A DNA stretch of 53,433 bases, from assembly GCA_008632985.1 (NCBI GenBank), contig QPGO01000330.1:1-53433 (forward strand), written 5' to 3'. Source of the DNA: Psammoneis japonica. Lineage: Eukaryota. The notes beneath the pieces were generated by a model. That model was not told the DNA's origin and ran no database searches. It saw only the letters and a list, made by a program, of their open reading frames with translations. Position 1 is the stretch's first letter, and the number at the start of each line of letters is the position of its first letter. The position numbers and the translations under genes are program-made. This document shows, piece by piece, positions 2,188 through 31,731 of the stretch.

Positions 2188-2859
2188 TTTTCATTATACC
2201 TGTCATTTTTTCAGCATGGACATCTAGGACTGCGAGTGCTGAAACTGTCCTTTCATGCCAAAAATCTACATGGCATGAGTCCTTCGTTATTATTTGTTCA
2301 ATTGAGGAATCAAATCCTGAAGGTTTCAGTGTCTAGCAGGGCACAGAGAGGGACGACCAATGGATGTACCGGCACTGCGAGCGCATGCAATGGCTTCACC
2401 ATTGCGACTCATGCATAATAAAGCAGCGGTCTAAATTATATAATGCAGAGCGGGGGTTTTGGGGGGTTACTCTATTCCGTTCGCAAGTGATTGCGATGGT
2501 GGCCATAGAATTTGCCATTGCTCAGGCGGGTATTGCTGCTGCTTCTTTTTCGATTCGCATCATGTAGGTGGGAACTGCCTCCTCTTGTTTTGTGCTGTGC
2601 AAGTAGAGCTTGTGATCTGTTTTGTCATTGTGTTGGTTGCCGGTGGTGGCCTTGTTGGGAGCACAGTGCGATAAAAGGGTGCTCCGGTTGATGCGAATTC
2701 TTGCAGACCGCGTCTCGTCGCAGTTGTCTTTCGACAAACTCAATTGTGTGAGGTTTTGTCTGTTGAGCGCACTCCATCTCCGAACTGTCCATTGAGAAGC
2801 AGCAGCTTCTTCTTGTTGTTACTCATTCTAATGTCACTCACCAACTTGTCTCCTGTAAA

Positions 2860-4760: not shown

Positions 4761-7700
4761 CCCTAACTTACGATCGAACTTTCACCACCAAAAGTAAAGA
4801 TTTATACAAATATAAATGTTTTGCAACACTAACAAGACTCGTGTGAGTGTTGCAATCTCATTGTTATTGTGCTATCTATGTTTTTCATTGCGTTAAAAGA
4901 TTCGTAACACAACGGATGATTTTCGGCGAAAATATTGCCGTTATTTGGCTGTTACCTAAATATATCTTTCTACGATGCTACTTGGTAGGTTTTCTACCTA
5001 CAAAAAAATCTCAGTATAAATCTACTGACGTACAATCAGTATTGAGTCTACTGAGGAAGTTTATGATACATATCCCATGAGGATTTGAATACCCTCAAAA
5101 AACTATTTAAATGTTCATACTCTAGAAGCCTATAACAGTCAATCCGTCTAAGTATTTTTATTAAAATGCCACATACACTAAAATATACATAAATTATATT
5201 CAAAATCCGATTGTCGTTTTGTGCGTCACCTGGGATGGAACACGTCCACCCCACACATGCACCACAGCACTTGCTGGTGTCCCTTCTGCACACAAGTCAT
5301 CCCACATGTGCACTTGCCTTTGTTTTTTGTTGTTTTCCTCCAGCTTTTTGGTGCACTTCTCTCTTTGCTGGATTTTCAGCACCTGTTTGAGGAAAAAGTG
5401 GAGTGAAGCCAAAACAAGCACCCGGGTGTGGATCGATGCCATCACTGAGCCAAAGCGTGCACGCCAGCATGACATGGCAAACATGAAGGCGGTCATCTTC
5501 ATGTGTGATCTGTCACTCTGGTGTGTGTGTGTGCGTGCTTCACCATTTTGAATGATGACTTGCCAATCTGCTGTTCTAAAAGGCACAGGAAGAAAGACAT
5601 CTCTCTGCCAGAAGTGGGGGGCACTGTGCTGGCTGTGTGCAAAAAGCCACACAGCAATGAAGACAGAAGTCTCTGCCATTGTGGGATGAACTCTCTGGCA
5701 GCAAGTGCCACTGCTTTGATTGTAACTTGGTGCAAAAGGCAAGTGTCAATTGAGAAGTTGTGTGCCATGTGCCCCCTTTTGGCGCTGAGACCAATGCAGT
5801 CAATTGTTTTTTTTGACCCACACATGGACAGCTTTGCACTGGAGGACAATGCGTGTGAGACAGCAGCTGTCAAAGCTGCAGAGGGACACCATTTGTCTCT
5901 TGGTCCCAGTCAAGTGAATCTGAAGCAACCCAAAGCTTTCAAATCCAGGAGAGTTCAGAGACACTGTCTTTGCCACTCAGCCAGATGACCCGCCATTGCC
6001 ACAATTTCTTGAGCCAAAGAGTGCCACTGACTTTGGACTCTTCTGGGTGTTTCAAGGTCTCAGCATCTCATTGGAACAAACTGTCAGGGCCTTCTGAGGT
6101 GAGCAAATTTGTGACATCTTCATCACTGTGTGGCCACCCTCTTTCATGTCTCAGCTGATTTCCTTGGATGGATGCAAGGAGTGGAGAGCATTGTTGACAT
6201 GCTTGGATTTGGTGAGCTCAGAGCACTTTAGATGCTCATCATCTTGCACTCCAAAATTTGTGTTGGCACATGAATTCTTTCCCAACCCAACAGGTGTGCA
6301 GAAGCAACACAATCCGTGGGCACCTTCCTTCTTGTGAAGATCTCCAGCAGTGCACTTCTTGGACTGTGCCTTTGGGTGGAGCAACAAGGATGTGGCACCA
6401 CTCCAAAACTCAATGTTTGGGAGGACATGGCCGCGGCTGACCATCACAGCTGCCATCAGTGGCAGATTCTGTTCTGCCCATTGGAGTGTCCAGTGGTTGT
6501 GGTGAGTGTCACAGTTCTTGAGTTGCTGATGCATGGGTGCATGGAATGACCAAGGTTGCAGTGGCTTGCAAGGAGTGCTTGGCTGTGGTGTGATTGTCAG
6601 TCTTGTGCTGCATTGTCTTGGTCATTGACAATTCACTGTTCTTCCCCAGAGCCAACCTGCGACACCTCTTGGCTTCTCTTGTGGACACGGCCATTTGCAA
6701 TCAGCCAAAGCTGTCTTCATTTTGTCAAGCCCAAATGGCTTGCCTTTGTTTTGAACTGACTTCTTGCCAATCATTTGAATCTCATCAGCAGAAGCAGTGG
6801 GGATGTTGCCGGAAGCGCCCCGCTCTGAGCGCATCATGGCTGCGGCATTCAATCACTTTTGGATGATCCTGTCAGCCGCTCATTGGCTGCTCAATGGAGT
6901 CATTGAGTTTTCCACTGCAAAATCAATGTCTTTGGCATGCTTTGATGTGGGAACAGCCAGCAGGACCATGTCAACAAACTCCAATTTTCTGTGCAATCCT
7001 GATTCCTTGTTTGTCGGCATTCAGAAGTTTTCATGAAATTGAGATGACGGCGCAAGATGAGGTCTCTTGTTTTGGGCATGAGTCTCTGATTGCAGCTGCT
7101 GATTTTCTTTGCACATGTCCTCCAATGCAATGAGGGGCTCCAATTTTGCCAGCACAGGTTTTTGACCTGCCGGTGCTGTGCTTGATTCTTGAGATGGAGA
7201 CGGCTTCTGGTTTTTTCTCAACTGCTCTTCCACTTGCTTCTTGCATGCCCTTTCACTGTTCAAGTGGTTGTGGACATGTCCAACATTGGGAATTCTAGCA
7301 GCTTCAGCAGCTGCCACAGTTGCTCCTTTTGTTGCCGCTTGCAAAATTAAGAGGCTGTTTTGCGCCAATGCCAGCTGGTTGTTGGCTTCCTTCAATTCCG
7401 CTTGGTCACTTTCCTCCCGCTTGTCAAAAAGTTTTGAACATTTTTCAATGCATTGTCCTGGTGTTGCATCTGTGAAGCAAATGTGGAAGCATCAAGGCAA
7501 CTGTCAAATGCATTGTCCATTTGTGACCTTCCACTTGCAGTGGCATTTTCGGCATTTTCCGTTGACGATGAAAAGCTTGATGATCCGTTAAAACGACTCA
7601 TGGCATTTTGTCAGTCTTTGGAGGTGTGATGGCATGACTCTCAGTGTTGCAGTTTTCTTTGGTGGTGTGATTGTGCCACTTGTCTGTTGGGAAGAACAAA

Positions 7701-7925
7701 CTGCTGGCATCTTGCATTGTCATTGCACTGTGGGGTTGATGCGGTGGTGCAGCGGCGCTTGGAATTCATGGGAACTTCTCACTCTTTTGCCTGGCTCCGA
7801 CGTCCCACTGGCTGCCCAACAAATTTGTAAATGAAGCTGCACTTGCTGCCGCCCCTTGATTTTCTCACCCTCGGCTCTGCCTCTTTTTCCTGCCCTGCTT
7901 GTTTGCCCCCAAGATTGGCAGCAGC

Positions 7926-8293
7926 GGCGGTTCTGGGCTGGGGAGTTGTCACCCCAGCAAAGCCTGAAGTCACCAAAACCGCCGCCACATTCAGTGGGAC
8001 AAACTCTGAAGCAGCATTGGTGGCATCAGCCATTTGAGCTGGAAGGGAGAAGGACAGATGCGCAGCCACTCACAGCCTTTAACGAACCAAGTGCCAATGG
8101 CGTTCTTTGTTGCCAGCTCATTGCCGCCTGTCGAGGCCACAAGAGCAGCTGTGATTGACCCTCCTCTCCCTCCCTGGGCTGCCTGGTGGCGGTTTTGGGC
8201 TGGGGAGTTGTCACCCCAGCAAAGCCTGAAGCCACCAAAGCTGCCACCACAGCCAGCAGGACGAACTCCCAAGCAGCGTTGGTGGCGTTAGCC
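7926..8293. repeat. Two diverged direct copies of ~107 bp (7926-8032 and 8188-8293)
   Basis: Shared GGCGGTT(C/T)TGGGCTGGGGAGTTGTCACCCCAGCAAAGCCTGAAG...AAGCAGC(A/G)TTGGTGGC...AGCCA. Confidence 0.85.
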
Positions 8294-8739
8294 ACGCTCT
8301 GCAAATGAAAAAACACACATGCCGCGCACAGTCTGGGGCGCTGCACAGCGAGCGAGCGAGCACCGGCGCTCACATCAGGAGCACAGGCGCTTGCACAGCA
8401 TCGCAGTGAGCTGCACGCATGTTGAAGACGGCGCCGTTTCTCGTTTCTCCCCGCACCACAAACCACAAACATCATCAACATGGAGCACCTGCAACGATGG
8501 CCATCGCCGCTGAAAACGAGCATTGTCGATGTTGTGTTGACACCATTGGACCTGCTGTTGTCAACCCAAAAACTGATTCACAATGAAAACAAATGGGAAC
8601 ATTCTCTTGAGCCGAAATGTGTTTCTTCATTCTCACATTCTCAGTGAGTGAATCAAATCACTCCACGGTGTTTTTGTGGTTTTCTCAACTTCTTGTTTTC
8701 CTTTGATCTTTGTCCACATTTCTCTGTGGGAAAATGTCA

Positions 8740-8925
8740 CATCATGCGGGGCATCTCAAGTTGATGCCATGTCATGCGGGCGGCTCAAGCGGATGCTGCA
8801 TCATGTGAGGTGGTTCAAGCGGATGCCACATCATGCAAGGCGGCTCAAGCGGATGCCAATGCCTTGCTGGGCGGCTCAAGTGGATGCCAACACCTTGCTG
8901 GGTGACTCAAGCGGATGCCAACATT
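8740..8925. repeat. Minisatellite, ~6 units of ~29-32 bp with core GGCGGCTCAAGCGGATGCC
   Basis: The core is directly visible six times, with transition variants. Confidence 0.85.
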
Positions 8926-9344
8926 GAACATTGCATGGAGTGGTCCAAGGGTGAGGAGAGTTCTTCATTTTAAAATCTACAATCTGCCACTTTTGGGAAA
9001 GCCCCAATGCAAAGGGCAGACGAGGTTGCTCTCGTCTCCAACAATTGCGAGCAACTGTGCCAAGGTGGCTGACTGCAGTGGCGCCTTGGCAATTTTTTTC
9101 TTTAAGACGGCCCACGAGAGCCAAGGGGTTGCTCCCCGGTGAGACTGAGAGTGGCACCTCCAAGGAAGGGGGTGCCACTCGACGTGCTGCAACCCGAATC
9201 TCAGTTGGACAGGGTTCGCCTGCCCTCAAAGGTGGTGATTGGTTGTTTTCAAGGAATGTGGTGGGACAGAAGGACAAAATGGCTGGATTGGATTGATCCA
9301 CAGTGCAGAATGGTTGTCGAAAAGCTTGGATGGTCGTTCGCAGT

Positions 9345-10013
9345 GGCGCTTCTAGACGCCTCTCCTCCTGTGGACGCTTGTCCATTTTCTTGTGCTTGCG
9401 CACCTTCTTGCAAAGTCGATCTTGCGCAATGCCATCAACCAATCCAACATCTGAAAGGCATTGGGCACGGGAAAAAGCAGTGCAGGTCAAACCATGCTCC
9501 TTCTCGCGGTTGGACAAATCGACGACAAAATGGGACTTGATGGTTTGGCCTTGAGCTTTCCAAACAGTCATCGCCCAGCAAAGCTTCAAGGGCAACACAG
9601 TGCGAGTGTGTTCATCACAGCCCGCATCATCTCACTTTCGAGTGTGCACGGCTGCAGTCACAGGGTGAATTGGCACCCAAACTCGGGGACTGTCATGGTC
9701 GGGGAAAAATGATCCTCCACCGCAGTCTCTGCCGAAGTCAACCCACACAAACTTTGGAAGAGATGGAGCCGAGCCTGATTCGTCATGCACAACGTCCTTT
9801 GCTGTCCCAGTTGCTCCATTGCACAATCCCGCCGACTGGGCAACATTCATGGCAAGCATTGCTCTTGCTCCGACACTGAGGCACATCGAATTCTCCAAGC
9901 CTCGAAAGGAATCAGACGTCTTTTTCTTGCCGTCACCAGTGCTTTTAGCTTGCACTGGAGCAATGGGCTTGCCAAGCCTCTGAAGATTCTTGTTGTTGAA
10001 TTCTTCCACTTCA
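9345..10013 (-). mobile_element. PIF1-family helicase C-terminal remnant (Helitron RepHel-like)
   Basis: LSVGARAMLAMNVAQSAGLCNGATG, WVPIHPVT, LPLKLCWAMTVWKAQGQT and GLTCTAFSRA correspond to PIF1 motifs (GLCNG, PL.L.WA.T.HKSQG.T, YVALSR). Confidence 0.8.
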
Positions 10014-10015
10014 GA

Positions 10016-10257
10016 ATTGAACCCATGATTTGTGAAGGGGATCGGGTGAGCAGAGTTGATGAGATGTGCGTTTGATGAGATTGCTGTCGGCTCTGTCCAA
10101 CTGTTTGCGCTGCCGTGACACAGCCAAAGCATTGACATGGCCAGACAAATGGACGGCCACCACCATTGATGGAAAGCGGTCGGCACAATTTGAGCACACC
10201 CTCTTGGTCACTGCAGATGGCGTGGAGGCTTTGATGGGGAAGATTGAAACATGCCCA
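10016..10257 (+). pseudogene. Methionine aminopeptidase type 1 C-terminal gene fragment with an intron (10046-10123)
   Basis: IEPMICEG / GTGAG...ACAG / [37 protein letters not shown] is the MetAP1 C-terminal signature, including two metal-ligand glutamates. Confidence 0.85.
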
Positions 10258-12000
10258 TGCAGTTCTAGGAAAAAGAATCGATGGCACACAACGGCTTGGA
10301 ACGACACCGGCAGCAAAGGAACGCGAAGCAGAATTGCTGAAAGCTTCTCAAGAAAACCGTGCAACGCAGTGAGCATCAGTGTGCCATGCAAGAAATGCCT
10401 CGCAGCAACGAATGGTTGCTTGGCGTTGACAGGACAACCTCGAGGCCGACGGATGAAGACTTGTGAAAATCCTGTGAACCTTGAGTCATTCTTGAGCTGT
10501 TGTTCAGCTGCTCCCAAAGAGTCCATGATTCAGTTCTTTGAATGAGAGGATGCATCATCCCTGGGCAAGGATGGAGGACAGTCGGTCAACACATCATCTG
10601 CCATGCGGTGCAACCTTTGAGCTGTCGCTGAAGGAATGCCATGTGTCCTCACAGTCAAGCAGCCCCTGCTGGCCTGTTTTTCTTCCTCAACGCAGTCCCT
10701 GCATCAGCGGCCTGTCTCAATTTTCTTCCACCACAGCCAGCAGAGAGAATCCTTCTCGGGCCTTCAAGCAGTGTGTTCGTTGACCGTTGGGGCGCGTCAG
10801 CGCACATGTTCCAGATTTGTCCCGGTCATTTTTTGTAAATGGCATGGACACATCTTCTGCCATGGGTGTTTTGCGTGAGACAAGAATCTCCATTTGACGA
10901 CGAGGTCTCACAATTTCGTTACAATGCGATTTCATTGTGATGTTGGTGATTGACGTGCTTTTAGCACAAGAAGCCATCCCCAGCAACGCGCCGCAACCAA
11001 CCCCCGGTGCGTTCTCAATGCAAATCAAATGACCAAGAAAAAACGAAACTGCAGGAAAAGTGTGGCGCAGCATTGTGCCTTGGTTCCAACAAATCCAGCA
11101 TCACAGGACAACACAAGCAAACCAAAAGAGGACACAGGAGTCTCACTGCACGCTCTCTGCACACTGCATGCTTGAGGATGACTTGTGTCCAGTTTGTGGA
11201 GTGTCATGAGCTTTTGCAGGCTGTTGTCATTTTCTTCTGATTACAAAGTACAACGCGGTCGAGCATTCCACACCGGTGCAAGCACGCAAAGGTTGTTGTC
11301 ATTCCACAATGTTTTGTCATCCACATCCATTGCACAAGAGCACACCACCACATCCGAATGTGTGCATCAAGCTGCCATTGTCAAGACATCATCGCAAGAC
11401 GATGATTCATGGTTTGTTTCCAAACAAGGCGAAGTGGATGGGCTGCTGACTCTGTCCTGTGCCGTGCTCAGTGAAGCCAATTCGATTGCATGGCACCCAT
11501 GGAGTGTGAATGCGGAGGATGGGATGATGTGCACTTTCATGCCTTTTGCCGTCTTTTCTGTGGAGGACAAGACATGGTTGTGGCACTGGAAGGTAAAAAC
11601 TTGAGACTTCACAAATTTCATCATCTTGTTTCCAATTTGTTGCACCGGTGCATGCGTGGGATCTGGCATTGGTTTTTTGTTGGAACTTGTGCTTTTGCAC
11701 AAATTTTGATTTCAGAGCCATGGCGCGAGAGGGCGCGGCACTTGCACTGTTGCCGCAACCATCCTTTTGTTCGGGCAAAACGCACGTTGTTCATTTTGGA
11801 GCATCGGGCAATGTCAGCACAGTGATTTGTCATTGTTTGCCCTCGGGGTTTGAAGCCGTTGACGTCACGTTGCCCAGCCGTGTTGTTTGGAACGAGATTC
11901 TTCTGTTGTTTTGTTGAAACGATTGGTGTTCGGTGCCAGCCCATCATCTTTTCCAACGCATGAAGCGGATGCTCTTCCAGGCCTCAATGACGGTGCGATG

Positions 12001-12380
12001 CGTTCCAGGTCCAGGTGGGACCTCGTGCCACTGAACTGTGACATCGACAGTTTTTTGAATCACGTCGCATGTTGCGCACGTAGATTTCTACGTGATTTTT
12101 TCGATGTTTTTTGTCATTTTACGGTGCACTCATTGAGCGATCCGTCCAACAACTTTTGACATTTTTTGTTGCAGCGCAATTCTACAATGTCTTAAGAATC
12201 GCGCAGGGCAGGCGCATTTGCAAAAAAGTCGAGTGGCAAGAGGCACAATTGCACCACAAACTTGGCCGTTTGTTTGATGTTGAAGATGAACACATCCATC
12301 AATTAAATTCTCGTACTGCGGAGCTCGCACGCAGAATTCCACGGGCCCAATGTCACACGGAGTCCCACCTGGGACTGGAA
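12001..12380 (+). repeat. Dispersed ~380 bp repeat, copy A (copy B at 27553-27931)
   Basis: Colinear match from CGTTCCAGGT to CTGGAA; differences are almost all transitions. Confidence 0.9.
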
Positions 12381-13555
12381 CCCGTCGTGCAGGCATGGGC
12401 GCTGTGGATTCAGACTTTGGAGACGATGGCAAATGCCGCGACTTTGGAGGTTTTGATGATGACAGTGGCGACGTGGGCAATGCGGGTGCTCATGCCACAG
12501 ATCTTTCATGACAGGCCTGTGTTTCTTTGTTGGAAGAATCACAGACGGCACGGAGACAATGTTTGCCACCCTGCGCCTTCTGATGCAAAACGAGAGGAGG
12601 AATCGCAATGGAAACGTTGGCAAGACATGCATCAACATTTCACACTGCAGACGCCATCACAATCCCTTGGGCACGGAATTGAGTGCAACCCCAATGACCA
12701 TGTCAAGTGGGACATGCGTTCTAGACAAAAAGCACAGCGACCAATGATGTCAACAGTCTCGACGCCACCGGCACACACGTGCACATTCTCGCCTGCTCGG
12801 AAGCACAATCATCTCGAATCCGTTGGTCATTTGGCGATTGAATCTGCAGCCGCCTCTTCCTGCTCCTGCCGACCCTCAGCCAATGAGGCCTTGCCCTGTC
12901 TTGAGATCCTGCACAGATGTTCGATTTTGAGCGCCCCCTTCACAACAAGAGAAAAGATCTTTTTCGCTTTTCGCTTGGCTCCCAGCTTCTCCTCATTCAA
13001 CATTGCGCGGTCTTTGTCTTGAATCTCGATGAAGCGAGCTCTTGGACCGTTGTCCACGAGACAACCTCTTGCAGCTAAAAGGCAAGGGCATGAGTTGATT
13101 CCGCACCTGCACCCGTTTGTTTGACAATGATGATGCAATGGCCTTCTGTTTTTCCAGCAAATTTAGCTTGCTGGCTCGTTCGTGTGACATCCCAACTCAT
13201 CATCCTGAAATCCTTTGCTTTTGAGAAAAGCTTCCATGTCAGGCACTGAAACCCAGCCATCCTTGTCGGCAACTGTGTCTCTTCGAAATAAATCCTTGTC
13301 AATGCCCAGCTCCTTTCTCATTTCCTCTTCTGGGACCAAGTCACTGGCTGTTGTTGAGCAAGCATCAGGGATGCATGTGGACTTCTTCCCAACGGGAATG
13401 AGGACGCCATCGTCGCGGAGCACTCCTTTCGGCAAAAGCTTGGCTCCACTCTTGGCGTTGTCTCGCTTGAGCTTGCGTCTCATTTTTTGACATGGTCAAC
13501 TCGTTTTCATCGGCTTGCCATCTGTGGCGTCGATTGTTCCACCACCGCGAGTGGC

Positions 13556-14735
13556 TGCCCCATCGTTCGTCGAAACCTGAAAGACAGAAATGCACAAATT
13601 CAACGAGAGAAAATCATCCTTGAAATGAAACCAAGATCCGGGAAATGCACTTGCGCTCTTTTTCGTTCCGTCAATCGCATCCTTTTCCAGGTTTGCAGCG
13701 GCCTCTACATCCCCCCCAGCAAACTCCAATTCGTTGTTGGTGTGGACTGCCGGGTGCCGTTTCGTTTTCGAGTCATCGCTCGCATCCGTTGCCTCCATCA
13801 CGGCGGCATTTGCAATCTCCGTTTCGGTTGTTGGGACGCCTTCAGGGGGGCATTTCTTTCTCGTGTTGCCGCTCGCATCGTCCCCAGTGATTGCAGGGGT
13901 TGCATCAGAGTGAGATCCATTTCTGCGTGTGGCGTGCTTGTCATCTCTGTCATCCGTGGCATCCCCTGTTGCAGCACGAGGTGTCACCAAGGAAGCTCGG
14001 TCTTGTTTGCCAGAACCATGCTTGGCAGAAGGCGCTTCCAAGGAAACTCGACCCCGTTCGAAATGCACGAATTCAACGAGAGAAAATCATCCTTGAAATG
14101 AAACCAAGATCTGGGAAATGGACTTGCACTCTTTTTCGTTCCGTCAATCGCATCCTTTTCCAGGTTTGCAGCGGCCTCTACATCCCCCCCAGCAAACTCC
14201 AATTCGTTGTTGGTGTGGACTGCCGGGTGCCGTTTCGTTTTCGAGTCATCGCTTGCATCCGTTGCCTCCATCACGGCGGCATTTGCAATCTCCGTTTCGG
14301 TCGTTGGGACACCTTCAGGGGGGCATTTCTTTCTCGTGTTGCCGCTCGCATCGTCCCCAGTGATTGCAGGGGTTGCATCAGAGTGAGATCCATTTCTGCG
14401 TGTGGTGTGCTTGTCACAACTCCTCTGTGCCAGCTTTGTCGATTGCAGTGTTGTCGTTGTTCCTGGTTCGAAGGTTGGCGTGAGCAACCGCCCCATCGTT
14501 CATCAAAACCTGAAAGGCAGAAACAACCGAATTCAATGAGAGAACATCATCCTTGAAAAGAAATCAAGATCCGAAATGGACTTGCATTCTTTTTCGTTCC
14601 ATCAATCGCACCCTTTTCTGCGTTTGCAGCGGCCTCTGCACCCCCCCCAGCAAACTCCAATTCGTTGTTGGTGTGGACTGCCAAGTGCCGTTTTGTTTTT
14701 GAGTCGTCGTTTGCATTTGTGGCCTCCATCACGCC
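13556..14735. repeat. Three tandem-arranged copies (13556-13943, 14060-14416, and a more diverged 14488-14735)
   Basis: Copies 1 and 2 are offset by 473 bp and nearly identical. The repeated peptide ATDASDDSKTKRHPAVHTNNELEFAGG appears on the minus strand. Confidence 0.9.
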
Positions 14736-15270
14736 AATGGTGGCAGGCTCAGCGGTGTGCTGGGTGGCTGTGGTGGGCTCTGATGATTCAACAACGGAAA
14801 CTTCGCTTGTTGGCTTGCCAGGTCCACAATCTTCTGGAAATGCATTGCCGTTGTTGCCTGGTTTGACAGATCCGTTGACATCCAGCTGAGTTTTGCCATT
14901 GCTGTCGGGCCCGGAGAAGGAATCAACGCCTGGCATGTTGCACTCTTCAGCGGGTGATCCATCTCGGTTTGAGGGTGGCAGTGTGGCATTGTCCCCTTCA
15001 CGTCCTTCAGCTTTGTCACCCTCTCTCCCAACTGCAGCAGATGCTTTCACTGACAGCGCTCTGCTTGGTTTGCCCGGCAAAACTTCGGCTGGCTCTGGAC
15101 ATCCATTGGAAGCCTCCCTCGGCTTTTCAGTTGTGTTCGCGTCTAGCATGACAACGGTGGCAGCTGCAACATCTTGGCCACGAGAGATCTTCTGTCGTTT
15201 GGTCGTTGTGCGGTCCACAATTCTCTTGATCTCATGTCTCTTGTTTCCGGACAGCCAGACTCCATCCTTC

Positions 15271-15663
15271 NNNNNNNNNNNNNNNNNNNNNNNNNNNNNN
15301 NNNNNNNNNNNNNNNNNNNNNNNNNNNNNNNNNNNNNNNNNNNNNNNNNNNNNNNNNNNNNNNNNNNNNNNNNNNNNNNNNNNNNNNNNNNNNNNNNNNN
15401 NNNNNNNNNNNNNNNNNNNNNNNNNNNNNNNNNNNNNNNNNNNNNNNNNNNNNNNNNNNNNNNNNNNNNNNNNNNNNNNNNNNNNNNNNNNNNNNNNNNN
15501 NNNNNNNNNNNNNNNNNNNNNNNNNNNNNNNNNNNNNNNNNNNNNNNNNNNNNNNNNNNNNNNNNNNNNNNNNNNNNNNNNNNNNNNNNNNNNNNNNNNN
15601 NNNNNNNNNNNNNNNNNNNNNNNNNNNNNNNNNNNNNNNNNNNNNNNNNNNNNNNNNNNNNNN
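15271..15663. other. Assembly gap (N run)
   Basis: Run of N characters. Confidence 1.
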
Positions 15664-19995: not shown

Positions 19996-21036
19996 CATGA
20001 CAAACGCCCAACCAGTGGTTTCAAGCATGAGAAAAGCAAGTTGGAGCAGCGAATGGTTGGGGAGCAAATGATGGAGTCAATGGGTGGATGCGAGGACGAA
20101 GTGTTGGCTGAAGAGCTGACCAAAGCTGAATTTGACAGCATCAAAACAAGACACTTGAATGACAAGGGCATCATGGGGAAAGACAAAGCATGGATTGAAG
20201 CCCAAAATGCGAGGGCTCTAGAGAAGGCAGCCCGAAAAAAAAAAAGCCCAGCAAGACGGTGATCGATTTTGAGACTGAAGGCTCGGAAGAAACTGTGGAC
20301 AACGACGAGAGCTGGGCTGCATTCGAGCAAGCCGAGCTCAACAAACGTCGCAAGGAGCTTGCCACCCAAGCCTTTTGGGCAAGAGCCAGTCACTGCAAGA
20401 CATTCTCATGGTGTGCCAAGAAGTCTTTCCAGGGATGCAAAAGCTTCAACCAGGCGGCAGGGGGAAGCTCACCAAGCAAGACGGGCATGAAAGCTCTGAC
20501 AAAAGATTGGCTGTCTGCTGAAGGAGCTGCTGCAAAAATGAACACAGCTGCTGCAGCTGGACTTGAGCATAAAAAGTCTGAGTCCAGCGCAGCGAAGCAG
20601 AAAGAGGCAATGCGGGGTTTGTTTGATGTGGCTGGGTCGGAAATTGGCCAGCACCACTTTGAAGCTTGCAGCAGTGCACGACACTGTGCTGTGTTTGCTT
20701 GGCATGAATCACATGCAATCCTGATGGCATGTGTTGCTTCTCCCCAATCACTGGTCGTGTGCTCAGTGAACACTCGTGGGAAGGATGAGATTCGAAGTTG
20801 GGTGATGTGGGGCAGGTCGTTTCGGAACGAAAAATGTCCATTTTGTTTTCACAAAGCATGGCCTGTCGAGCTGCAATGAGTGCACCATGATCTTAGGATT
20901 GCAAACTGTCATAAATGTTGCCCTTGCTAATCACCTCTACTCTAGAGCAGTGGGCCCTCTAGAGATTAGAGCATGCCGCAACGTTCCTGTTGTCCGCAAC
21001 GCCTGTAGAAATGGCACGAGCGGGCGTGCAAGTTTT

Positions 21037-21096
21037 ACTCGTGACTTCGAATCACGAGTCGAGAATGTATGTTGACTCATTCGATTGAATGAGTCA
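21037..21096. promoter_or_regulatory. Two adjacent perfect palindromic stems: ACTCGTGA-7nt-TCACGAGT and TGACTCATTC-4nt-GAATGAGTCA
   Basis: Inverted repeats at 21037-21059 and 21073-21096. Their regulatory function is only inferred. Confidence 0.5.
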
Positions 21097-22213
21097 CGAC
21101 TCGGGAATGAAAATGGATCCATTCGACTAGAATTTATGAAACTAAAAATGGTTAGACTTTGACCCCCCACTCGAGACAGAAATGCACAAGATGTGAACCT
21201 TATCGGTCTCCTGCCCTTTAAAACAATGTCTTGCGAGAATAGAATAGCCATGTATTGTTCATGGTGTCAGGTATTTGAAAATGGAACTAACTTTTCGCGG
21301 AGCACCTTTGTTGCACGTGAAAGTGCGAGGGACGATTTTTGGTGATGGCTCTGCTGCACAACTAACGCAACCTTCTACTTGCGACCCCAAAAGTTGTTGG
21401 GAACTCTGCATCAGCAAGAAAGCAGGTATCATGTAGTTAATGCAGTCGTACGAATGAGGGGTGGTTGTCACGCGCAAGAGATTGCAGGCTGTGCGCGCGA
21501 AATTTGAAACAGTTGTGGCACCGTTTTCGGGGTGGTGGTGGGTTTTTGTCAACTTCTAGGCATGACATCGATGTTGTAGGTGGATGGTCGGTTGGCATGT
21601 TGTCTGGAAGGGTGCGAATCGCATGACATCAGTCGGCTGGAAATGCATTTTGGAAAAAAATGGGGGGTGTGTGATCACACGTGGAAGCATGACGTTGGGC
21701 CCCATGGCAGCGCCGAGCCGCCGCAGGCCTGGCATGTTGACGTCATGCGCACATTTGCACGAGAACAATTCGTAAAAAACAACAAGTCCCGTGACGTCAC
21801 CACTGCAAAATTGTTGCGCGACGAGCCGAAGGAGTTTCATGTGTGCGACCATGATGAAACGCTGCGATTCTGGCGGCAACACGCAAGCTTGTTCCCAGCA
21901 ATGCATTGTGGCACTGCCATGTGTTCTTTCCTCAATTGCAGCACACAACTTTTTTGGATGAAAACAGTTCAAAACATCTTGTTTTCGGCTTGCAAACCTG
22001 AGGACGCGTGCAAGATCCCACTTGTTCAAGTTGAAGTTGCATCTGGATGGAAGTTCCAGTCGACCGAATTTCCGTGCTTTAATGCATTTGGACCTGATGA
22101 TGCTTTGAACTTGTTTTGAAGAGAAGCATCGCAAAATTTGGACGAGAGCATCACTTTGATGCTTCCGATCATGACACGGGTGCCGGTGCATGCCTTGTGA
22201 GGTGAGCACTCGA

Positions 22214-22582
22214 TGCCGTGGGTGAGTGTGTCTGACCGCATGTGTGTCCTGTTCATGTTTGTCAGAGTTCTTCAGAATGTTTCCCGAACACCACAAGTCT
22301 GTTCAATGACTTGTTCCAACAACGTCAAGTCTTTCCAATGACTTGTTCCGAACAACAAATGTTTCCAATGACTTGTCACATGTGAGAAGAGCTCGGGTTT
22401 CTCTGTGCTTCAAGTGCTGCGTTCTGTCTAAAAATTTCTACGTGATCTCCGACAGACTGACTCTAGAGATCCTCTCCTCTGACTTTGCTCACAATTCATC
22501 TGTGAACCCAAATTGCTGCAAGCACATCTCGTCTGTCAAACTGTCAACCACTTTGTCAACTGTCATCTGGCGCCATTGGACA
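22214..22582 (+). repeat. 5' LTR (contains three internal CAATGACTTGT repeats)
   Basis: Ungapped alignment to 24481-24849, about 91% identical by manual count. Confidence 0.9.
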
Positions 22583-24480
22583 CATCAAATTTACTCCCCG
22601 TTTCCAAACACCTTGTCCTTTGCTTCCACGAAGCCCCTGACATTTACAGCAAGTTCTGCGAATTGTCCTGACCAGCCATGTCAGCCGAAAACTGTCCTTT
22701 CCATCTTGTTCGCTCCAAACGAACATGTGAAGAATGTCGCAAAGATCGTTTTGTGTCGTTCGAGTCTCCACTTGACCCAAATGACCCTGAAGGTCTCAAG
22801 TCTGCCATGGAAGTGTGCACGTTAGATGCCGAAGACCCTGAAGACACTCTTGCTTTCTTCAAGCGATTAGAAGAAGTTTCTGTCATTCTCAGTGTTGCAG
22901 AAGGAATCCCACGTTTCCGTCCAATCGACCGCCCATTGACAGGCCAGCCGATGGATGACTGGACTGCCATCATCGATGAATGCGAAGATTGAGATCAAGA
23001 CACTTTTTTTGCAGCATGTGAGGAACATCTTTTAACCAAGATGACCCGTGACATTGCGGTGGACACCAAAGATTGGTTGCAGTCCCTCAAGAAACCACGC
23101 AATGAGACCGCACAGTTGTTTCTCCAACACATCCATCAGATCAATGACCTCATTCCATTCATGCCATTGCCCGCGGATGAAGAAGACGCACAGCCCATTC
23201 CCAAGTTTGCGGAAGCGGAGTTGTCTGTCATCATCTGGAAAGCTTGTCCCAAATCCTGGAAAAACTCTCAAGTCCGTGCAAATCTACAAGGACTCAATCT
23301 CCGCAAGCAAGTCTCATGCTGCGAAAGTCTGCGCAACATTGACAACTCAGAATCATTTTTGCTGCCTTGTCAAAACCATGATGCAACCGCACAGCAATCC
23401 AAAACAGAATCAAGCAGCAAGAATCAGCAAGCCTTGCAACAAAAATCCAACTCCAACTCGAGTTCCCAAACAAACAACACATGTCCCATCCATGGAGCAG
23501 TCCATCCAAATGGACAAGAATGCAATGTCATTCGCTGTGAGCGAGAAATCTGCCAGCAGCGACGTCAACAAAGGCCCCAACGTGTCCAATCCTCAGAAAA
23601 CAATGGCCCAGACAACCAAACTCGGAGCCAGCCGCAACAGCAGCCAACTCATCGCTGCAACCTGCGCAGCAGAAGCAACCAACAAAGAAACAATGAAAAC
23701 AATGCGATGGAAGATCCTTCCAGCACCCACAATGATCCCCCAGAAGATCTTGGAAGCATGCCATCCGAAACCATCAACGAAATCTACAATCTTCATGATG
23801 AAATCAACGAGATTGAAAGTCAGAATGCTCAAGAATCTCAACAAAATGTCAGCGCAGATGTGCAAGTTCAACTTGCCTCGTCCTCTGCCTCTCATGCAGA
23901 GCAAGCACTCGGTCTCCTCGACTCTGGAGCCAACAACAACTGCACCAAGCGCGAAGCCCTTGAAAAAATCTCCCATCAAATCAAGCCAATTTCCACACCG
24001 GTGCAAAGCCGCTGCAAGTCAGCTCAAGTTCAGAACAAGGCAGCATTCAACATGACATTGCCTGAATTTTCTCAATCGAAGCCCATTGCCATTGAAGCGC
24101 ACATCGAAGACGGTGCAATTGGTCATCGTGCCATTGTTGTCGGTCGCCAAACGTGCAAACAACTCGACATTGTTCTGGATTTCACGACTGCCATGATGAC
24201 CTGTGGCAACGTCACCATCCCTGTGAAAACAGAAAACAAGACTCAACATGCCACCTGTGAAGACTGGCGTCACATCAATCGAAAACATCAAAACGTCCAA
24301 CTTCAAGTTGCGCCTCTGCAAGTCGGCTCAAGCCCAAATTTCATCCTGCCAATCGTTCCAAGTCCAAATTTAACTTTGCCAACGGTGCAGTCACCATCCA
24401 GCGCTCTTCTGACGTCACCGAATGGATCAATCTCCATCATCATCACCCTGAATTCTAGCCTGCCCAGTTGGGGAAGCAAG

Positions 24481-24849
24481 TGCCATGGGCGAGTGTGTCT
24501 GACCGCATGTGTGTCCTGTTCATGTTCATCAGAGTTCTTCAGAATGTTTCCCGAACACCACAAGTCTTTTCAATGACTTGTTTCAACAACGTTGAGTCTT
24601 TCCAATGACTTGTTCCAAACAACAAATGTCTCCAATGACTTGTCGTGTGTGAGAAGAACTCGGGTTTCTCCGTGCTTCAAGTGCTGCGTTCTGTCCACAA
24701 ATTTCTACGTGATCTCCGACAGACCAGCTCCAGAGATCCTCTCCTCTAACTTTGCTCACAACTCGTCTGTGAACCCAAATCACTGCGAGCACATCTCGTC
24801 TGTCAAACTGTCAACTGCTTCATCAACTGTCACCTGGCACCATTGGACA
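24481..24849 (+). repeat. 3' LTR
   Basis: Ungapped alignment to 22214-22582; preceded by a polypurine tract and followed by the TSD. Confidence 0.9.
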
Positions 24850-27552
24850 CTTGATGGCAGGCTTCACAACGTTTTCTTTTGTTTTGCTCACAAAATCTGT
24901 TGTTTTCGACTTCTTTGTTGTCAGGGTGAACACTTCTAGCCTCTTGTTGTAGAAAGAACAAGAATCAGAAGAGTTCTGCAGGCCAAAGGGAGCACTTCAA
25001 TCTCAATTTTTGACGCGTCCGCGGCGCGAGTCATTCGAGGGCTGGTTGCATCACATCGACCGCTGTTGTTCCAAGAGAGCCTCTCATTTTCAAGCTGAAC
25101 ATTGCGCCTTTGACACTTTAAAGGATCTTTGTGTAAAGAAACGGATCAAAGGTGCACTGTCATCTTGCAAAAGTCGATCAGACTCGATTGTTTGTGCAGT
25201 GGCGGGAACGGCACATGCTCGGACAGAGACGTCCATCGCCCAGGTCAGATGCACTCCAAAACACAGTCTCTAACATCAGCAACATTTCTGTCAGAACACT
25301 CAAGCATCAATTGCAGAATTGGCCTCACAGCAGGTCGCGCTCAGCTCTGCGACAATCCCAGACCCAATCTGATGCAATCGAAGCGCGCAACGAGTGCTGA
25401 GGCAATGCAATGGCTTAGACAACCAAGGTTGAGAGCCCCAGAAGACTGGCTCAGGCATGTTTTGCATCAACAGTGGAGTGACAACGGCCACAACATTGCT
25501 GGAAGAGCTTCTTGTGTTTGTTTGGTGGATGAGCCGGATGCATCAAATGTCTCCAGTCGAACAGCTTCCGGCATCTCAAGCCCTTGAACAACTTTGTCAT
25601 TTGTTCCAACCACCCATTGTCATTGCCATGGACCACTCATGGCAAGAAACAGATGAATTCACAACGATGCATGATGAACATTGTTGCATTCCGAGTCGAT
25701 TTGGTTGTCACGTGGGGGCTGGCAAACTGTTTCAAAGTGGACATGTGTTTGTTTCTGCTCACATGATTCCACCCAAGAAAGCGAATCCATCCATGCCACC
25801 ATTTTTGTTGAATCGATCAATGAACACAAGTGCTCTGGCATGTGCTTTGGTCGGAGAGACCTTTGAAACCTTTGCTGGACTCTGGTGGATGGAGGCAACA
25901 ACAATGAAAACGCATGAGAAGCAGCAATGTGAAAAAAAAGCATCTCAAGGACACAATCGAGCAGGAATCTCCATGACACATGCTCCCAGTCAGGTGTGAA
26001 AGGACTCTCCAGATGAGATTCCTGCTCGATTTTCAATGTCAACGCCGCCGCAAATGATGTTCCTGGTTCTTGGTTCTTGATCGATGTCTTTTTTTCTCGC
26101 GCAAAAAGCACGAAGATTTTCAGATGGCGGACGAGCGCGCCAAAAGACATTTTAGTCGAACGACTCATGCGGTCCCTCCATGTGCATTCACAGGGCCAGA
26201 CATTTTCTGTGACATGCCAAATCAGAGGGACAGCACACCCAATGTCAGAGGGACATGACAAGCGTGCAACTGCCACACACAGACACATGAACACCGAAGG
26301 ACGACACATTCAAAACTGAGGGACACGACACCACAACAATCACACCTCACACACACCAATGCTCAACGCTTCCAACGCTGCAACACAATGAGACACAACA
26401 TCACATCATGTTGCCGGTGCTGTGTGTCTGAACAACTGCAACATGCACAGAGCTGTGACACTGTGTTTTGTGGATGACTTTGTGTGGTCAACCCACCTTT
26501 TGACAGGGCTGCGCAGGTGCATTCCAAGAAAGACATTCGAGCCAGTGGACTTCGAGGTCCCAGACCACAGGCTCCGGCAACAAAAAATGAGTGTTGTTTT
26601 GTTTGTGTTGACACAATGTCGGCATTGCTGCCATCGTGTCCCGATTCATGTAAAAAAAAAAACAAGGCATTCTCTGTTGCAATGTGTGTCCTTGCACTGC
26701 TTCATTTTTCCCGCCATCTTGTTGAATTTGCTGCAGCAATCAATGGGTGCGTGCAAAAATGATGCCGGCATGATGCCGGTGTGATTTGTTCGGTGGCATT
26801 TATTTTCTCAATCTGTTGTTTTGCTTTGATCTTTGTTTGCTCTCCTGCAGAAAATCAAGATGCTTTGTGACTCCAAGAGATTGGTGTCGCGGGTGTTGAG
26901 TGCAGAGTGATGAGTGTTGGCAATGAGTGGGATGACATGTGATGCCATGTCATGTGTCATGTGCAGGGCGGCTTGAGCTGGTGCAGCACCAGCGTCATGC
27001 TGGGTGGCTCAATGTGAGAAGGAGCATTCTTTGTTGCACTTTGCAATCTCTGTCACTTTTGGAAAAGTCCCAAAACATGGGCAGACAAGGATCATGTCTC
27101 CAAATGACTCAAGTGTCTGCTGAGGATGCTGCTTGCAGCTGTGGCTCCTTGGTGATCCCACCTTCTGCATGGGCTGTTTTGATGAGAGCAAAAGGATTGC
27201 ATCCTGGGGGGTGATTGGGCACCTCCAGCACACGGGCGCCTGGCCATCTTTTTTGAAGGAGCCAAGAGTGTTGACGACCTCCCAAGTCTTGTTGCTTGTT
27301 TGTTTGCATTGCTTCTTCCTTTGGATGAAACGATTGCAAGACATGTGTTTGTGCAATGCTTGCAATGCTTTGAGCCCCACAGATGATCAAGCAAACAGAG
27401 ATGTCAGCTCAGTCGCTCAGTCGGACATGGAGTCTTGTTGATGTGGGTGGTGGTGTGTTGGGCACTTTGTTGGAGCAAGCATGAGTTGCCCGAGGCAGCA
27501 GTGAAGGCAATGGTGGTTTTGTTGAAGGGAGGTGCCAGGGGCTTGGCCGACG

Positions 27553-27931
27553 CGTTCCAGGTCTGGGTGGGACCTCGCACCACTGAGCTGTGACATCGAC
27601 AGTTTTTTGAATCGCGTCGCATGTCACGCACACAGATTTCTGCATGATTTTTGTGATGTTTTGTGTCATTTTACGGCACACTCATTGAGTGATCTGTCCA
27701 ACAACTTTTGACATTTTTTGTTGCAGCACGATTCTACAATGTCTTGAGAGTCACACAGGGCAGGCGCGTTTGCAAAAACGTTGAGTGGCAAGAGGCACAA
27801 TTGCACCACAAACTTGGCTGTTTGTTTGATGTTGAAGACAAACACATCCATCAATTGAGCTCTTGTGCTGCAGAGGTCGCACACAGAATTCCACGGGCCC
27901 ATGTTGCATGGAGTCCCGCCCAGGGCTGGAA
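27553..27931 (+). repeat. Dispersed ~380 bp repeat, copy B (copy A at 12001-12380)
   Basis: Colinear match to copy A, with further loss of TA and CG. Confidence 0.9.
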
Positions 27932-30900
27932 TGCGTTGGCCGCACTTTGCACAGATGGATTTTTGGTTGTGGCAGCAGTGCTGGGTGGGTGTCTGTGCAG
28001 GACTTGTTGGCATCAGATGTTGGGTGGAGGGAGGTGTGTGCAGCATTCAGCATGGCAGCATTTGTGTCAGCACAGGTGGCATCATTGACGGCGATGTTGG
28101 TGCAGGCAGCATCGTTGTCTCTGGATTTGGAGCAGCAGGCAATTCGGTCAGCGGCACTGGCGCAAGGTGGGAGGGAGAGTTAGATTTGGTGTGGTGGTGG
28201 CATTGGGTGGCTGTCTGTGTGGAGTTTGGTGTTGGAAGCAGACAGAATGAATGACCCGCTGGTTTTCTTAGAAGCAGCTTGAACGCTGCAGTGTGCTTCA
28301 TGCAAAACCAGGGCACCTGATCATTTTAGGAGTGTGGGTTGGTCACACGGACTTGTTGTCTCAGCTGCAACTGCCTGCTTCTGCTTCTGTCAATGTGTGC
28401 AACAGAGAGGTGCAATCCAAACGGCAAGGTGTGAAACACATCAAGAGTGCCCTGCAACACTGTCATGGATTGACTTGGTGTCACCATTGCAAAATGTGAG
28501 AGTGCGTCATTTGTGCCACACCAAGAAGATTGATGATGACATTCAAGGCAGTCTAGATGACACATTTCCAAAATGACATGATTGAAGACTTGCAAACACA
28601 GTCAAGATGCACTTGTTTGTAAAAAGGAAATGCCTTGATCTGTTGATTCTCAAGGCATGACAACCACAACAATGTGAGTGGCTGGTGCAAACAGCGATGC
28701 TGTTGGCTCCAACACTTCCAGCCCTCTGCTGGCATGCTGGCAGGCTTCTGTTGCAAATCCAGCAAAAGGAGTCATGGTCAATTTGCAGCCATTGTTCTTC
28801 TTAAAACCATTCAATGTGTGTGTCAACAATGGGAGAACCTCTTGTGATGGGGTCTTTGGCTTGTCACTCGCACTCTGGTGGAGGCATCAAATGGCACAAA
28901 ATGAGGGTGAGTCACTCAAATGCAAAAACATGGCTCAAATGGAGTTTGGGAAGTGGAGTCGCCATGCAGAAACCTTCTCATGGGTGCAAGGAAGACATTC
29001 ATGCCCTGACTCCACTTCCCATGTCAACATTGATGCCGCCACAATTGATGTGCTCGTCACGGTGGGACTGTGTGTTTTGCCACACAGGAGTTTCAGAAGG
29101 GCGGACAAACATCGGGCAGAGCATTTGAGCCAAAGCATTCAAGCCACAAGGTCCCTCCAGCCACGCATTCACAGGGCCTTTCACAGGGCCTTTCACATGG
29201 TGGGGGCCCAAAGTCAAGGGACGCGAGCAATGCTCCCCCAAAAAATTTTCATGCAGTGGTGCACGTGCTCAAAAGCACAGCAAGGGGGCACAGCACAGGT
29301 GCCTCATGCGGCACAGCACATGCAACAAGCGCTTCTCATTTGCAAGAAAAAGCAAAAGCACATGAAACCACAATGCTGCACTCCGCCACACCCACAGGTG
29401 AATGTGGAGGCTTGTGCCTGCATCTCAAAGCCCAAGCTTTGGAAGAGACAATTCAGCCAATGCCGGTGGAGACTTTTTTGCACCTTGCTCTTGAACAACA
29501 GCAGAGCACATGCCGCAAGCAACATCAACAAGACAGGTTGCACCCGCCTTGCTCAAGACTGAGTCTCTTTGCTCCAGAGTCTGTGGAAACAAGCAGAAGC
29601 AACACAGCAACCCGGGCCCATCTTGGCTTTTGCCATGCCACTGCAGGATCAAGATTGTCGCCAGCCTGCGCCATTGTCATGACAAGCACACTGTGGTTGA
29701 GACCATTGACACTGTGGATGGTGTCTTGGACACGAGTGGGGGATGACAGAAGTGACTGCTTTTAGCCATCGCATGTCTGTGTGAACATTTCACAGAAGCA
29801 GCCAGTGCTGCAACAATGGCAGCCATGACGTGCAGCAGGTTGCTCCTGTCGGATGACTTGACTCATTCTCAGCAACATCTGTCCCATGACCGGTGCCGCA
29901 GCCACGCCGCTTGACCTGCACAGCGCTGCCAACATCTCTCCCAAGATTGTGCAACACAGGCTGCAAAAGGAGCACCTGCATCACGAACAACTCAACACCA
30001 TTGACTGCACTTCACTGGTGGATCAACCTCGCCGCAAGCTCTGCATCGTTGATGAAATTGAAAGCCTCGAGAGATTTGAGTCAGAGCACAGACTTTGACA
30101 AACACACCCGCGCATGTGGGCCCCAAGAGCACATGGACGAACTGGAGCGTGAAGTGCCAGACGTGCAAGAGGAAGCCAAGCTGGACCTTGAAGCTCAAGC
30201 AGAAGCAAGCATGCTCAAGATTGGCTGAGGTGATGTTGAAACGAGCCAACGAAATGCATCGACGCACAAATGAAATGGACGTCAAGATGCCATGACCAGA
30301 CGTTGGCATGGAACAGCACAGCAGGAGTCGTTCACAACAACCTGCAGTGCGTGCTTTTTCTTTTCATCGCTTTTGCCTTTTGCGTGGTGCAGCGTGCACC
30401 AAGTGAGCACCTTTGTCACATTCTGTGGTGTTGTCGTCACTGTTGAAAGGAGCGCCAGTGCAATGGACTGCACTTGCCAAGCAACTTGCGGTGGGATTCC
30501 AAGCTGCTTCCGTGTGACATTGCCAACAACAATCTCAATCGTGTCATGTTTGGATCCAATTCCACCAACTGGATCAGAATTTCTTCCCAAGATCTTTTCC
30601 ACCACATGGCATGCGTGGTTCTCCGCCACTTGTCCAAATGCTTGCAGCTGTGCTCCAAAGTGAAATTGCCATTTGATGATGGCACATGTCAACCTTGACA
30701 ACTCTTGTCGGTGGGGCCAGCTGTCATGTGTTGGTTTGGTTGCATGTGCTCTCCAAGGCGCAGCAGAAGTCTTGTCGAGAAAGCCCAACCAAGGCCCTTC
30801 GTTTTTGCTTTTGTCCACAAGCACCAGCAGAGCCATGCTTCACGCTGACACAAGTGCAGCACGCTTGATGTGGCTTGAATCCAATGAACCTGCATGTCAC

Positions 30901-31731
30901 GAAATCAACTTCAAAGCAATGTGCTCCAATCCAGCCGATGGCGATGTGGAGCGCAAAGGCGTGGTCTTGCTTTGAGCGGCACTTCCTGGTTTGAAAGGGA
31001 GCTCTGTTTCCTTCACTCTGGTGGACCGCCAGCACTCAACCAAAATGGTCGGTTCACGTCTGGCCTCTCCAACACTGCCGAAGGCTCAAGAAAAAGTTCA
31101 ACAGCATGAACAAGTTCAGCGTGAATCTCGGAGGAAGCACAGAGTCCAGTTTCTAGAAGCTGTGCTGCCTCACATCCATGAGATGGCACAACATGCCGGT
31201 GCTGACAACTGCAAGGTCTCAGATCTGCTGACATCTTGATCTGGCTGTTCTTTCTCAAATGAAATGAAAGCATCATCATCATCATCATCTCCCTCGATTT
31301 TCCACCGGCACACTGAAGAACACGAGAAACCTCCGGATTTTTTCGAGTGTGCAATTGAAGGCGCTGCATGTTTGAAATGCATGATGCGATTTATGTGGTT
31401 CAACAATGATGTAGACCGCGGCAATGACAATGTCATTTGCAGTCTTCAGGAAAGAATGAATCTGAAAACACACTGACGATGTTGTGCAAAGCGCAGGCAA
31501 ATTCGCGCGATTGGAGCTCATAACCCATTTGGTGACCACACGACAGTGCCAGGTGCTCTGGAATGATTTCCCACCCTGGTTCGCCCCTCGCTAGAATTCG
31601 TCTGCATGGACCACTGGAAAGTTCAGTTTGCAGGATAACAACAGTGTGAGTGAGCAACAAGCAACAGAATTGATTGTTTCGGTCCAGACAATGCTTCGTC
31701 GTACCTGGACCCAATCGCAGCTCCAATCTGT

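Follow-up and report, generated by a model that had tools for sequence, protein, structure and literature searches.

Why do a few TA steps persist in DNA that has lost nearly all of the others, and what do their neighbouring bases tell us about whatever removed the rest? The question is raised by a 53,433-nt stretch of the diatom Psammoneis japonica (contig QPGO01000330.1, assembly GCA_008632985.1), referred to here as the window; all counts reported below come from this single 53-kb window. A three-state hidden Markov model (HMM), run over the window on TA versus CA and TG sites, delimited five TA-depleted domains totalling 33.5 kb, in which 107 TA steps remain against about 1415 expected, and 19.9 kb of normal DNA with 848 (3.2 versus 42.7 TA per kb). 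About 93% of the TA steps in these repeat-derived stretches have become TG or CA. We show here that the survival of a TA depends on the hexamer NNTANN in which it lies: loss was fastest at RTAY sites (R, purine; Y, pyrimidine), with ATAT, ATAC and ATAG wholly gone, and slowest at TYTARA. We further show that the two flanks multiply, acting jointly instead of strand by strand. The residual TAs are probably the slow tail of a near-saturating, flank-selective process that erases TpA.

Flanks of the surviving TA steps

Classified by the bases on either side of TA, the 107 survivors comprise 62 YTAR, 43 mixed and 2 RTAY sites, compared with 144, 426 and 278 among the 848 normal TAs (chi-square p = 6e-24). 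A first-pass annotation of this locus had proposed such a difference between depleted and normal NNTANN contexts, and had described the survivors as mostly YTAR or T(C/T)TAC in type. Our counts agree with it: beside the 62 YTAR sites, 30 of 39 surviving TAC half-sites carry TT or TC on the 5′ side, against 72 of 528 in normal DNA. None of ATAT, ATAC/GTAT and ATAG/CTAT occurs among the 107 survivors, whereas they account for 55, 136 and 95 of the 848 normal TAs (tetranucleotide p = 3e-24). With both strands counted, T follows TA in 3.7% of survivors and 26.8% of normal TAs, and A is the second base in 63% versus 28%; the remaining TAs lie almost exclusively in T-rich/A-rich surroundings (TYTARA). 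The examples quoted earlier can all be found (AATCTACAA at 8974, 23281 and 23781, ATTTACAG at 18427 and 22642, and TGTAAA seven times), and so can the exceptions (GTAC at 11248 and 12313, GTTAC at 10918 and GTAAC at 5722). ATAT, GTAT and ATAC had been called essentially absent from the studied interval, 5215-31390; ATAT and ATAC do not occur there, and GTAT occurs four times, always within a TA-normal island at 20894-21449. The single tyrosine codons of two open reading frames (ORFs) also lie in the contexts described as protected, as ATC TAC at 23785 in ORF 23041-24576 and as ATT TAC at 18430 in ORF 18256-18999.

The same bias was recovered with other choices of survivors and of reference. 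Over the raw interval 5215-31390, island included (n = 117), the YTAR, mixed and RTAY classes number 63, 47 and 7 (p = 5e-22); restricted to the depleted state within that interval and with duplicates removed (n = 86), they number 51, 33 and 2 (p = 5e-21). Homologous duplicates among the survivors amount to only four pairs, and dropping one member of each gives p = 5e-25. Against a first-order Markov expectation within the depleted DNA itself (0.31, 0.49 and 0.20 for the three classes) the survivors still differ (p = 4e-11). The held-out domains at 2611-4753, 36618-39437 and 47495-50231 contain 14 survivors, of which 11 are YTAR, 3 mixed and none RTAY (Fisher's p = 6e-7 versus normal DNA). One-sided protection applies to 43 survivors: on the plus strand, a T-rich 5′ flank is the protective one in 29 of them and an A-rich 3′ flank in 14, and TYTAGC/GCTARA makes up 14 of the 43.

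The flank rule extends over two bases on each side: position +1 carries 0.49 bit and position +2 carries 0.39 bit, with at most 0.06 bit at each of +3 to +5. Taken per strand, the log-odds of survival at +1 relative to T are 1.05 for C, 2.05 for G and 2.75 for A (T < C < G < A), and at +2 A alone protects (1.77). For the dinucleotide that follows TA, survival falls from 0.31 for AA and 0.22 for GA, through 0.12 for AC and about 0.09-0.10 for AG, CA and GC, to 0.005 for TC and CC and zero for TA. When sites are divided by the number of strands with A at +1 or +2 (0, 1 or 2), there are 1, 43 and 63 survivors and 295, 415 and 138 normal TAs, which corresponds to survival of 0.002, 0.061 and 0.27. 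This survival table and the log-odds support the earlier suggestion of a mutator that favours RTA/TAY and acts less readily where 5′ TY or 3′ RA is present.

We fitted loss rates with a Poisson model in which contexts in normal DNA stand in for the ancestor (1415 TA expected, 103 non-duplicate TAs left). In the multiplicative fit the relative rates are 1, 0.67, 0.44 and 0.30 for T, C, G and A at +1 (about threefold) and 1, 0.90, 0.79 and 0.44 at +2 (about 2.3-fold). Negative log-likelihoods (lnL) were 73.3 for the multiplicative two-flank model, 90.5 for a strand-wise additive model and 187.0 for a uniform rate, so that context improves on a uniform rate by about 100 lnL units. The strand-wise additive model lost to the multiplicative one by 17-19 units (18.9 with an empirical hexamer ancestor) and in 25 of 25 bootstraps, and was rejected whether or not exposure followed a gamma distribution. 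The underlying preference is modest, a few-fold per position; the survivor set looks narrow because exposure was saturating and not because the activity is highly specific.

The survivors themselves cannot tell which side of a target adenine matters, TA being self-complementary, but products can in principle, a TG derived from TA being still flanked by the bases of the strand on which the A was altered. In normal DNA TGA/TTG is 0.79 and TGNA/TNTG is 1.22; the two fall to 0.69 and 0.97 in depleted DNA, and tiles with a CpG observed-to-expected ratio (o/e) of at least 0.75 give 0.76 and 1.05. Simulations on normal DNA gave 0.73 and 0.97 when the 3′ side alone counted, 0.82 and 1.17 for a symmetric rule, and 0.91 and 1.41 when the 5′ side alone counted. 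In a mixed model that weights the far flank lambda times the near one, the survivor fit favours lambda of at least 0.5 (negative lnL 90.5, 79.5, 75.1, 73.6 and 73.3 at lambda 0, 0.25, 0.5, 0.75 and 1). The CpG-rich tiles fit a lambda of about 0.5 with the 3′ side dominant (0.76 and 1.03), and 5′-dominant models (0.87-0.93 and 1.31-1.43) misfit the observed ratios. For a given adenine, then, the 3′ side may perhaps weigh about twice the 5′ side in log rate. Several observations weaken the case for this asymmetry. The shifts in the CpG-rich tiles are not significant on their own (Fisher's p = 0.60 and 0.086), and CpG decay at TCG/CGA would move both ratios in this direction too. Of 28 events inferred directly, 17 hit the less protected strand and 9 the more protected one, with 2 ties (sign test p = 0.17), and in the 43 one-sided survivors the local CA-versus-TG bias is unrelated to the side of the protective flank (p = 0.72).

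Extent and direction of TA loss

The studied interval is covered, apart from the TA-normal island, by two depleted domains, at 5201-20888 (53 TA among 3020 TA, CA and TG sites; CpG o/e 0.69) and 21455-31577 (40 of 2182; 0.58). The three held-out domains retain 5 of 482 sites (2611-4753; CpG o/e 0.33), 4 of 607 (36618-39437; 0.40) and 5 of 591 (47495-50231; 0.15). Domain borders, as placed by the HMM, are sharp, and in a per-kb scan TA drops from 30-55 to 0-9 while CA and TG rise and, in some stretches, CG also drops. Pooled over the domains, TA o/e is 0.05 compared with 0.61 in normal DNA, and CA and TG stand at 1.64 versus 1.18, AA and TT at 1.27 versus 1.10, and AG and CT at 0.96 versus 0.98. 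The loss is thus restricted to TA: AA, CA and GA are not lost, and AA, AT and AG are unchanged or higher. CG is also reduced (0.56 versus 0.97). We considered decay of 5-methylcytosine (5mC) at CpG, giving TG or CA, and found that it accounts for the CpG loss but not for the loss of TA. The two decays are separable, because CpG loss differs from domain to domain (0.33, 0.69, 0.58, 0.40 and 0.15 in order along the window) and TA loss is uniform. CpG loss has a flank dependence of its own, with ACGA/TCGT, TCGA and ACGT about halved and GCGC not lost.

Contigs from the public run X1, aligned to the window at 80% likeness, indicate the direction of change (2884 contigs and 2241 differing places, 40 of which were listed). 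Transitions predominate among the differences (A>G 367, G>A 450, C>T 424 and T>C 418, with 45-77 for each transversion). At 19 of the 40 listed places the contigs have TA and the window another dinucleotide (TG or CA in 18 cases, TT in one), and at 12 the contigs have CG where the window has TG or CA; the remainder comprise 2 with CG in the window, 1 with TA in the window, in normal DNA, and 6 other changes. The reverse direction, TA in the window and TG or CA in the contigs, is absent from depleted DNA among these 40. TG and CA in the window therefore descend from TA and from CG, and the T:A to C:G changes are confined to TpA, giving TpG or CpA. Contig depth is similar, at about 300, over depleted and normal DNA, and one contig matches 21774-22193 with a single difference, which argues against TA depletion being an artefact of consensus calling in the assembly; X1 may be the very sample behind the assembly, so that this support is not independent.

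The contigs also reveal which TAs were lost. Seventeen sites at which they have TA and the window has TG or CA fall into 5 RTAY, 10 mixed and 2 YTAR contexts, and differ from the survivors in both RTAY (Fisher's p = 5e-4) and YTAR (p = 4e-4) content. The contexts of these lost TAs are ordinary, and so the ancestral contexts were not unusual. Homologous repeats within the window tell a similar story: in four of four pairs the same TA was kept in both copies (TCTACA, TCTACG, TTTACG and TCTACA), although the pairs diverge at 19 CA-versus-TG sites and at 10 further sites one copy alone kept TA.

The TA-normal island at 20894-21449 (27 TA among 110 sites; 12 YTAR, 10 mixed and 5 RTAY) has a contig depth of about 1700 against about 300 around it, and is therefore a multi-copy element, little mutated. 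An AT-rich stretch at 4764-5197 (31% G+C) likewise has normal to high TA (51 among 102 sites) with depleted DNA around it; it is bracketed by 14-base inverted repeats at 4694-4707 and 5233-5246, and may be a recent insert that the mutator has spared. The depleted domain at 5201-20888 includes an assembly gap, a 393-base run of N at 15271-15663.

Agents that could read the flanks

We propose that a near-saturating process would have turned TpA into TpG or CpA (T:A to C:G) in repeat-derived diatom DNA. The residual TAs would be those that reacted slowly, and their contexts a negative image of the flank preference of the activity. Two considerations weigh against this proposal: in every fit, DNA of normal genes is the proxy for the ancestral TA contexts of the repeats, and later changes may have altered the bases beside survivors too (TGTAAA, for example, possibly from TATAAA). 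Given that the two flanks multiply and that the 3′ side seems to count about twice the 5′ side, the agent would be expected to contact the target pair on either side, in duplex or near-duplex DNA, and not a single neighbour on a free single strand. Its chemistry could well be deamination of adenine to hypoxanthine, which is read as G, by an activity needing a 5′ T, although we hold to this tentatively. Sequence does not separate deamination of the adenine from oxidation of the thymine, because both change the same base pair.

Thymine chemistry is the alternative that fares best, and we regard it as unlikely. A TET/JBP-type hydroxylase would mark T in the TpA of silenced repeats, as 5-hydroxymethyluracil (5hmU) or a further oxidised base, which would sometimes be read as C, and TA decay would then parallel 5mC decay at CpG. 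In dinoflagellates, 5hmU has been described as replacing T preferentially in TA and TC, as being enriched in repeats and as silencing transposons (PMC11572971). TA loss and CpG loss do share domains in the window, and a multiplicative two-flank fit would suit an enzyme that reads duplex DNA at a palindromic step. The two losses are nonetheless uncoupled in degree, TC shows hardly any reduction in depleted DNA (o/e 1.05 versus 1.14), and 5hmU or 5-formyluracil would have to mispair with G at sufficient frequency.

The flank rule might instead be indirect, with T- and A-tracts beside TA altering DNA shape or chromatin and so limiting the access of any TpA-directed agent. The most protected sites are indeed junctions of T-runs and A-runs, such as TTTAAA and TTTTAAAA, and a single protective flank lowers the loss of the whole site. 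On the other hand, the signal stops two bases from TA, too short a range for a tract effect, single bases count without any tract (TCTAGA, TCTACA, TTTAGC), and the order at +1 is graded, loss falling from T through C and G to A. We consider this explanation improbable. Less probable still is that the survivors are new TAs, produced by later ordinary mutation or carried by younger and less exposed inserts, with their contexts reflecting that origin. Clustering of survivors could be taken in this sense (71 of the 107 have another TA within 150 bases), and both RTAY survivors (11249 and 12314) are clustered, the second lying in the less mutated copy, 11996-12380, of a repeat; TA-normal islands occur as well. 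New TAs arising from CA or TG would nevertheless carry the flanks of such sites (in depleted DNA, 0.235 YTAR and 0.245 RTAY), from which the survivors differ (p = 1.5e-18). Furthermore, the 36 isolated survivors, with no TA within 150 bases, show a sharper bias (26 YTAR, 10 mixed and no RTAY), and the same TAs were kept in both members of the four repeat pairs. Error-prone synthesis by a polymerase like Pol eta, which mutates A in WA motifs (W, A or T), is hardly credible here: both strands of TA present a WA hotspot and Pol eta can change TA to TG (PMC7884765), but WA includes AA, which is not lost (1.27 versus 1.10), AG is not gained (0.96 versus 0.98), and a loss of some 93% of TAs far exceeds patch repair.

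If the residual TAs are indeed the slow tail of a flank-selective process, the rule can be set against known deaminases. The first-pass annotation spoke of an enzyme-like fingerprint and suggested comparison with TadA, adenine base editors (ABEs) and Pol eta; the description is fair, but the comparison yields no match to Pol eta and a partial one to TadA. The native target of TadA is UACG in tRNA-Arg. With TadA and ABEs the activity shares a pyrimidine 5′ of the target A (here strictly T), so that the 5′ T of a TadA/ADAT-type signature is present and the known 3′ preferences are not. The ABE8e A48E variant prefers YAC (PMC13109818), TadA contacts both flanking bases, and standard ABEs are described as broadly context-compatible for A (PMC10354150). 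At the 3′ base there is partial overlap, C being second best here; the activity differs in that T beats C at +1, A at +2 matters and the flanks multiply, and in that TadA acts on loops and single strands. Editing of mRNA by fungal Tad2/Tad3 has U at -1 in 85.7% of sites, with A about equal to G at +1, then U, then C (UAG and UAA best), and takes place in RNA hairpin loops (PMC4817773). These ADAT2/3-type enzymes share the 5′ U/T but reverse the +1 order: here TAA and TAG have the strongest protection. Copying of ADAR edits into DNA was rejected: human ADARs prefer U > A > C > G on the 5′ side, without strictness, and G at +1 (PMC4817773), whereas here the 5′ T is strict and a 3′ G protects more than T or C does. 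Amphioxus ADAT2, a tRNA deaminase, acts on DNA at A in GAA and at C in TCG (PMC10354150); TCG/CGA is among the most-lost CpG contexts here, but the adenine target is GAA and not TA. ADAR, fungal Tad2/Tad3, amphioxus ADAT2 and Pol eta do not fit, and the rule excludes these obvious suspects because their context preferences differ; TadA does not fit either, but is nearest.

Repeat-induced point mutation (RIP) of ascomycetes is a repeat-directed, context-specific transition mutation, from CpA to TpA, that kills transposons. RIP raises TA; here the opposite is seen, TA being erased and CA and TG increased. The closest precedent for the process as a whole comes from an unrelated alga, Bigelowiella natans, in which two integrated viral regions show T/A to C/G changes at TpA alone and clusters of low TpA are found across the genome (Mettrop et al., bioRxiv 10.64898/2026.01.13.699255). 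This preprint of 2026, the one source from which TpA-specific hypermutation of foreign DNA is known, reports reverse transcriptase (RT) and DDE domains as enriched in the low-TpA set, proposes an adenine deaminase and draws the RIP comparison too (10.64898/2026.01.13.699255). The likeness is close: TpA-confined transitions yield TpG and CpA, and over the long term low TpA is clustered with high CpA+TpG. Bigelowiella is a chlorarachniophyte and not a diatom, and its TA o/e of 0.45 (in the region from a nucleocytoplasmic large DNA virus) compares with a far deeper 0.05 here. We conclude that the window presents a diatom case of TpA hypermutation. Among the listed matches of a literature search on diatom transposable elements and TpA dinucleotides, none described a TpA process in diatoms. 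The main text of the Bigelowiella preprint has no context, flanking or trinucleotide terms and hence no NNTANN rule, and with respect to that text the flank rule is new for TpA hypermutation.

It is possible, although we are more doubtful of this than of the deamination chemistry, that the hexamer rule is the trace of a dedicated enzyme which modifies bases as it reads near-duplex DNA, is unlike ADAR, ADAT2/3, TadA editors and Pol eta, and serves repeat-directed genome defence in diatoms and perhaps in other algae of the stramenopile, alveolate and Rhizaria (SAR) group. If so, the rule would provide both a test for the enzyme and a clock of the exposure time of each repeat. In an assay, attack on ATAT-type sites with sparing of TTTAAA-type sites would be expected of any candidate deaminase or hydroxylase, and a comparison of de novo mutation contexts could tell whether diatom and chlorarachniophyte share one process.

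Repeats and genes in the window

The window is a case in which repeat or foreign DNA is hit and adjacent host genes are spared. The normal stretches carry genes for a protein kinase, an ankyrin fragment, Nse3/MAGE, Eaf6/NuA4, a three-exon PALP enzyme and a NUDIX protein. The Nse3 protein has 129 relatives, the best matches being 52-54% identical; among the 120 listed, the six that are named are all from diatoms (Fistulifera, Ditylum, Nitzschia, Cyclostephanos, Stephanodiscus and Conticribra; 41-46% identity). Rfam and tRNA scans of the window gave no match. The depleted DNA carries a Pif1 2B remnant, a gag-protease ORF with repeats like long terminal repeats (LTRs), and a high-copy repeat. A Pfam search of its 129 stop-to-stop frames returned Pif1_2B (E = 5e-5), RVP (E = 0.01) and three likely chance matches, leaving the bulk of the depleted DNA without a recognisable domain. 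The Pif1 2B-domain remnant, at 9635-10207 on the minus strand, is the sole Pfam match in the domain at 5201-20888.

The LTR-like pair (22214-24850, plus strand) consists of repeats at 22214-22583 and 24481-24850 that are 91% identical over 370 bases; 31 of their 33 differences are transitions, and TCTACG kept its TA in both. The pair surrounds the gag-protease-like ORF of 511 residues (23041-24576, plus strand), which has a DSGA motif and a weak RVP match; no homologue was found among 7632 candidates. With 1 Tyr, 19 Cys and 18 His among its 511 residues, this Tyr-poor, Cys- and His-bearing ORF is the expected coding read-out of TAY converted to TGY or CAY, and it remains open since DNA devoid of TA can form neither TAA nor TAG. 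In one X1 contig, 22213 is joined to 24872; the intervening 2658 bases are missing and 17 other letters stand in their place, so that the X1 data must include a version lacking the LTR-flanked element.

The high-copy repeat is present as a less mutated copy at 11996-12380 and a more mutated one at 27548-27931, both on the plus strand and 87.5% identical over 385 bases. The latter has a contig depth of 28,000-36,000 compared with about 300 elsewhere, and by depth a repeat of about 300 bases (27549-27856; 11996-12380) is repeated roughly a hundredfold; a 24-base stretch of it had no match in a metagenome scan. The two window copies differ in TA and CG decay: TTTACG and TCTACA kept their TA in both, and five other TAs present in the copy at 11996-12380 are TG or CA in that at 27548-27931. 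Finally, in a tandem repeat with a unit of about 473 bases (13557-14733, plus strand; self-match 85.6%), the TA of CTCTACAT is kept in two copies and is TG in a third register.

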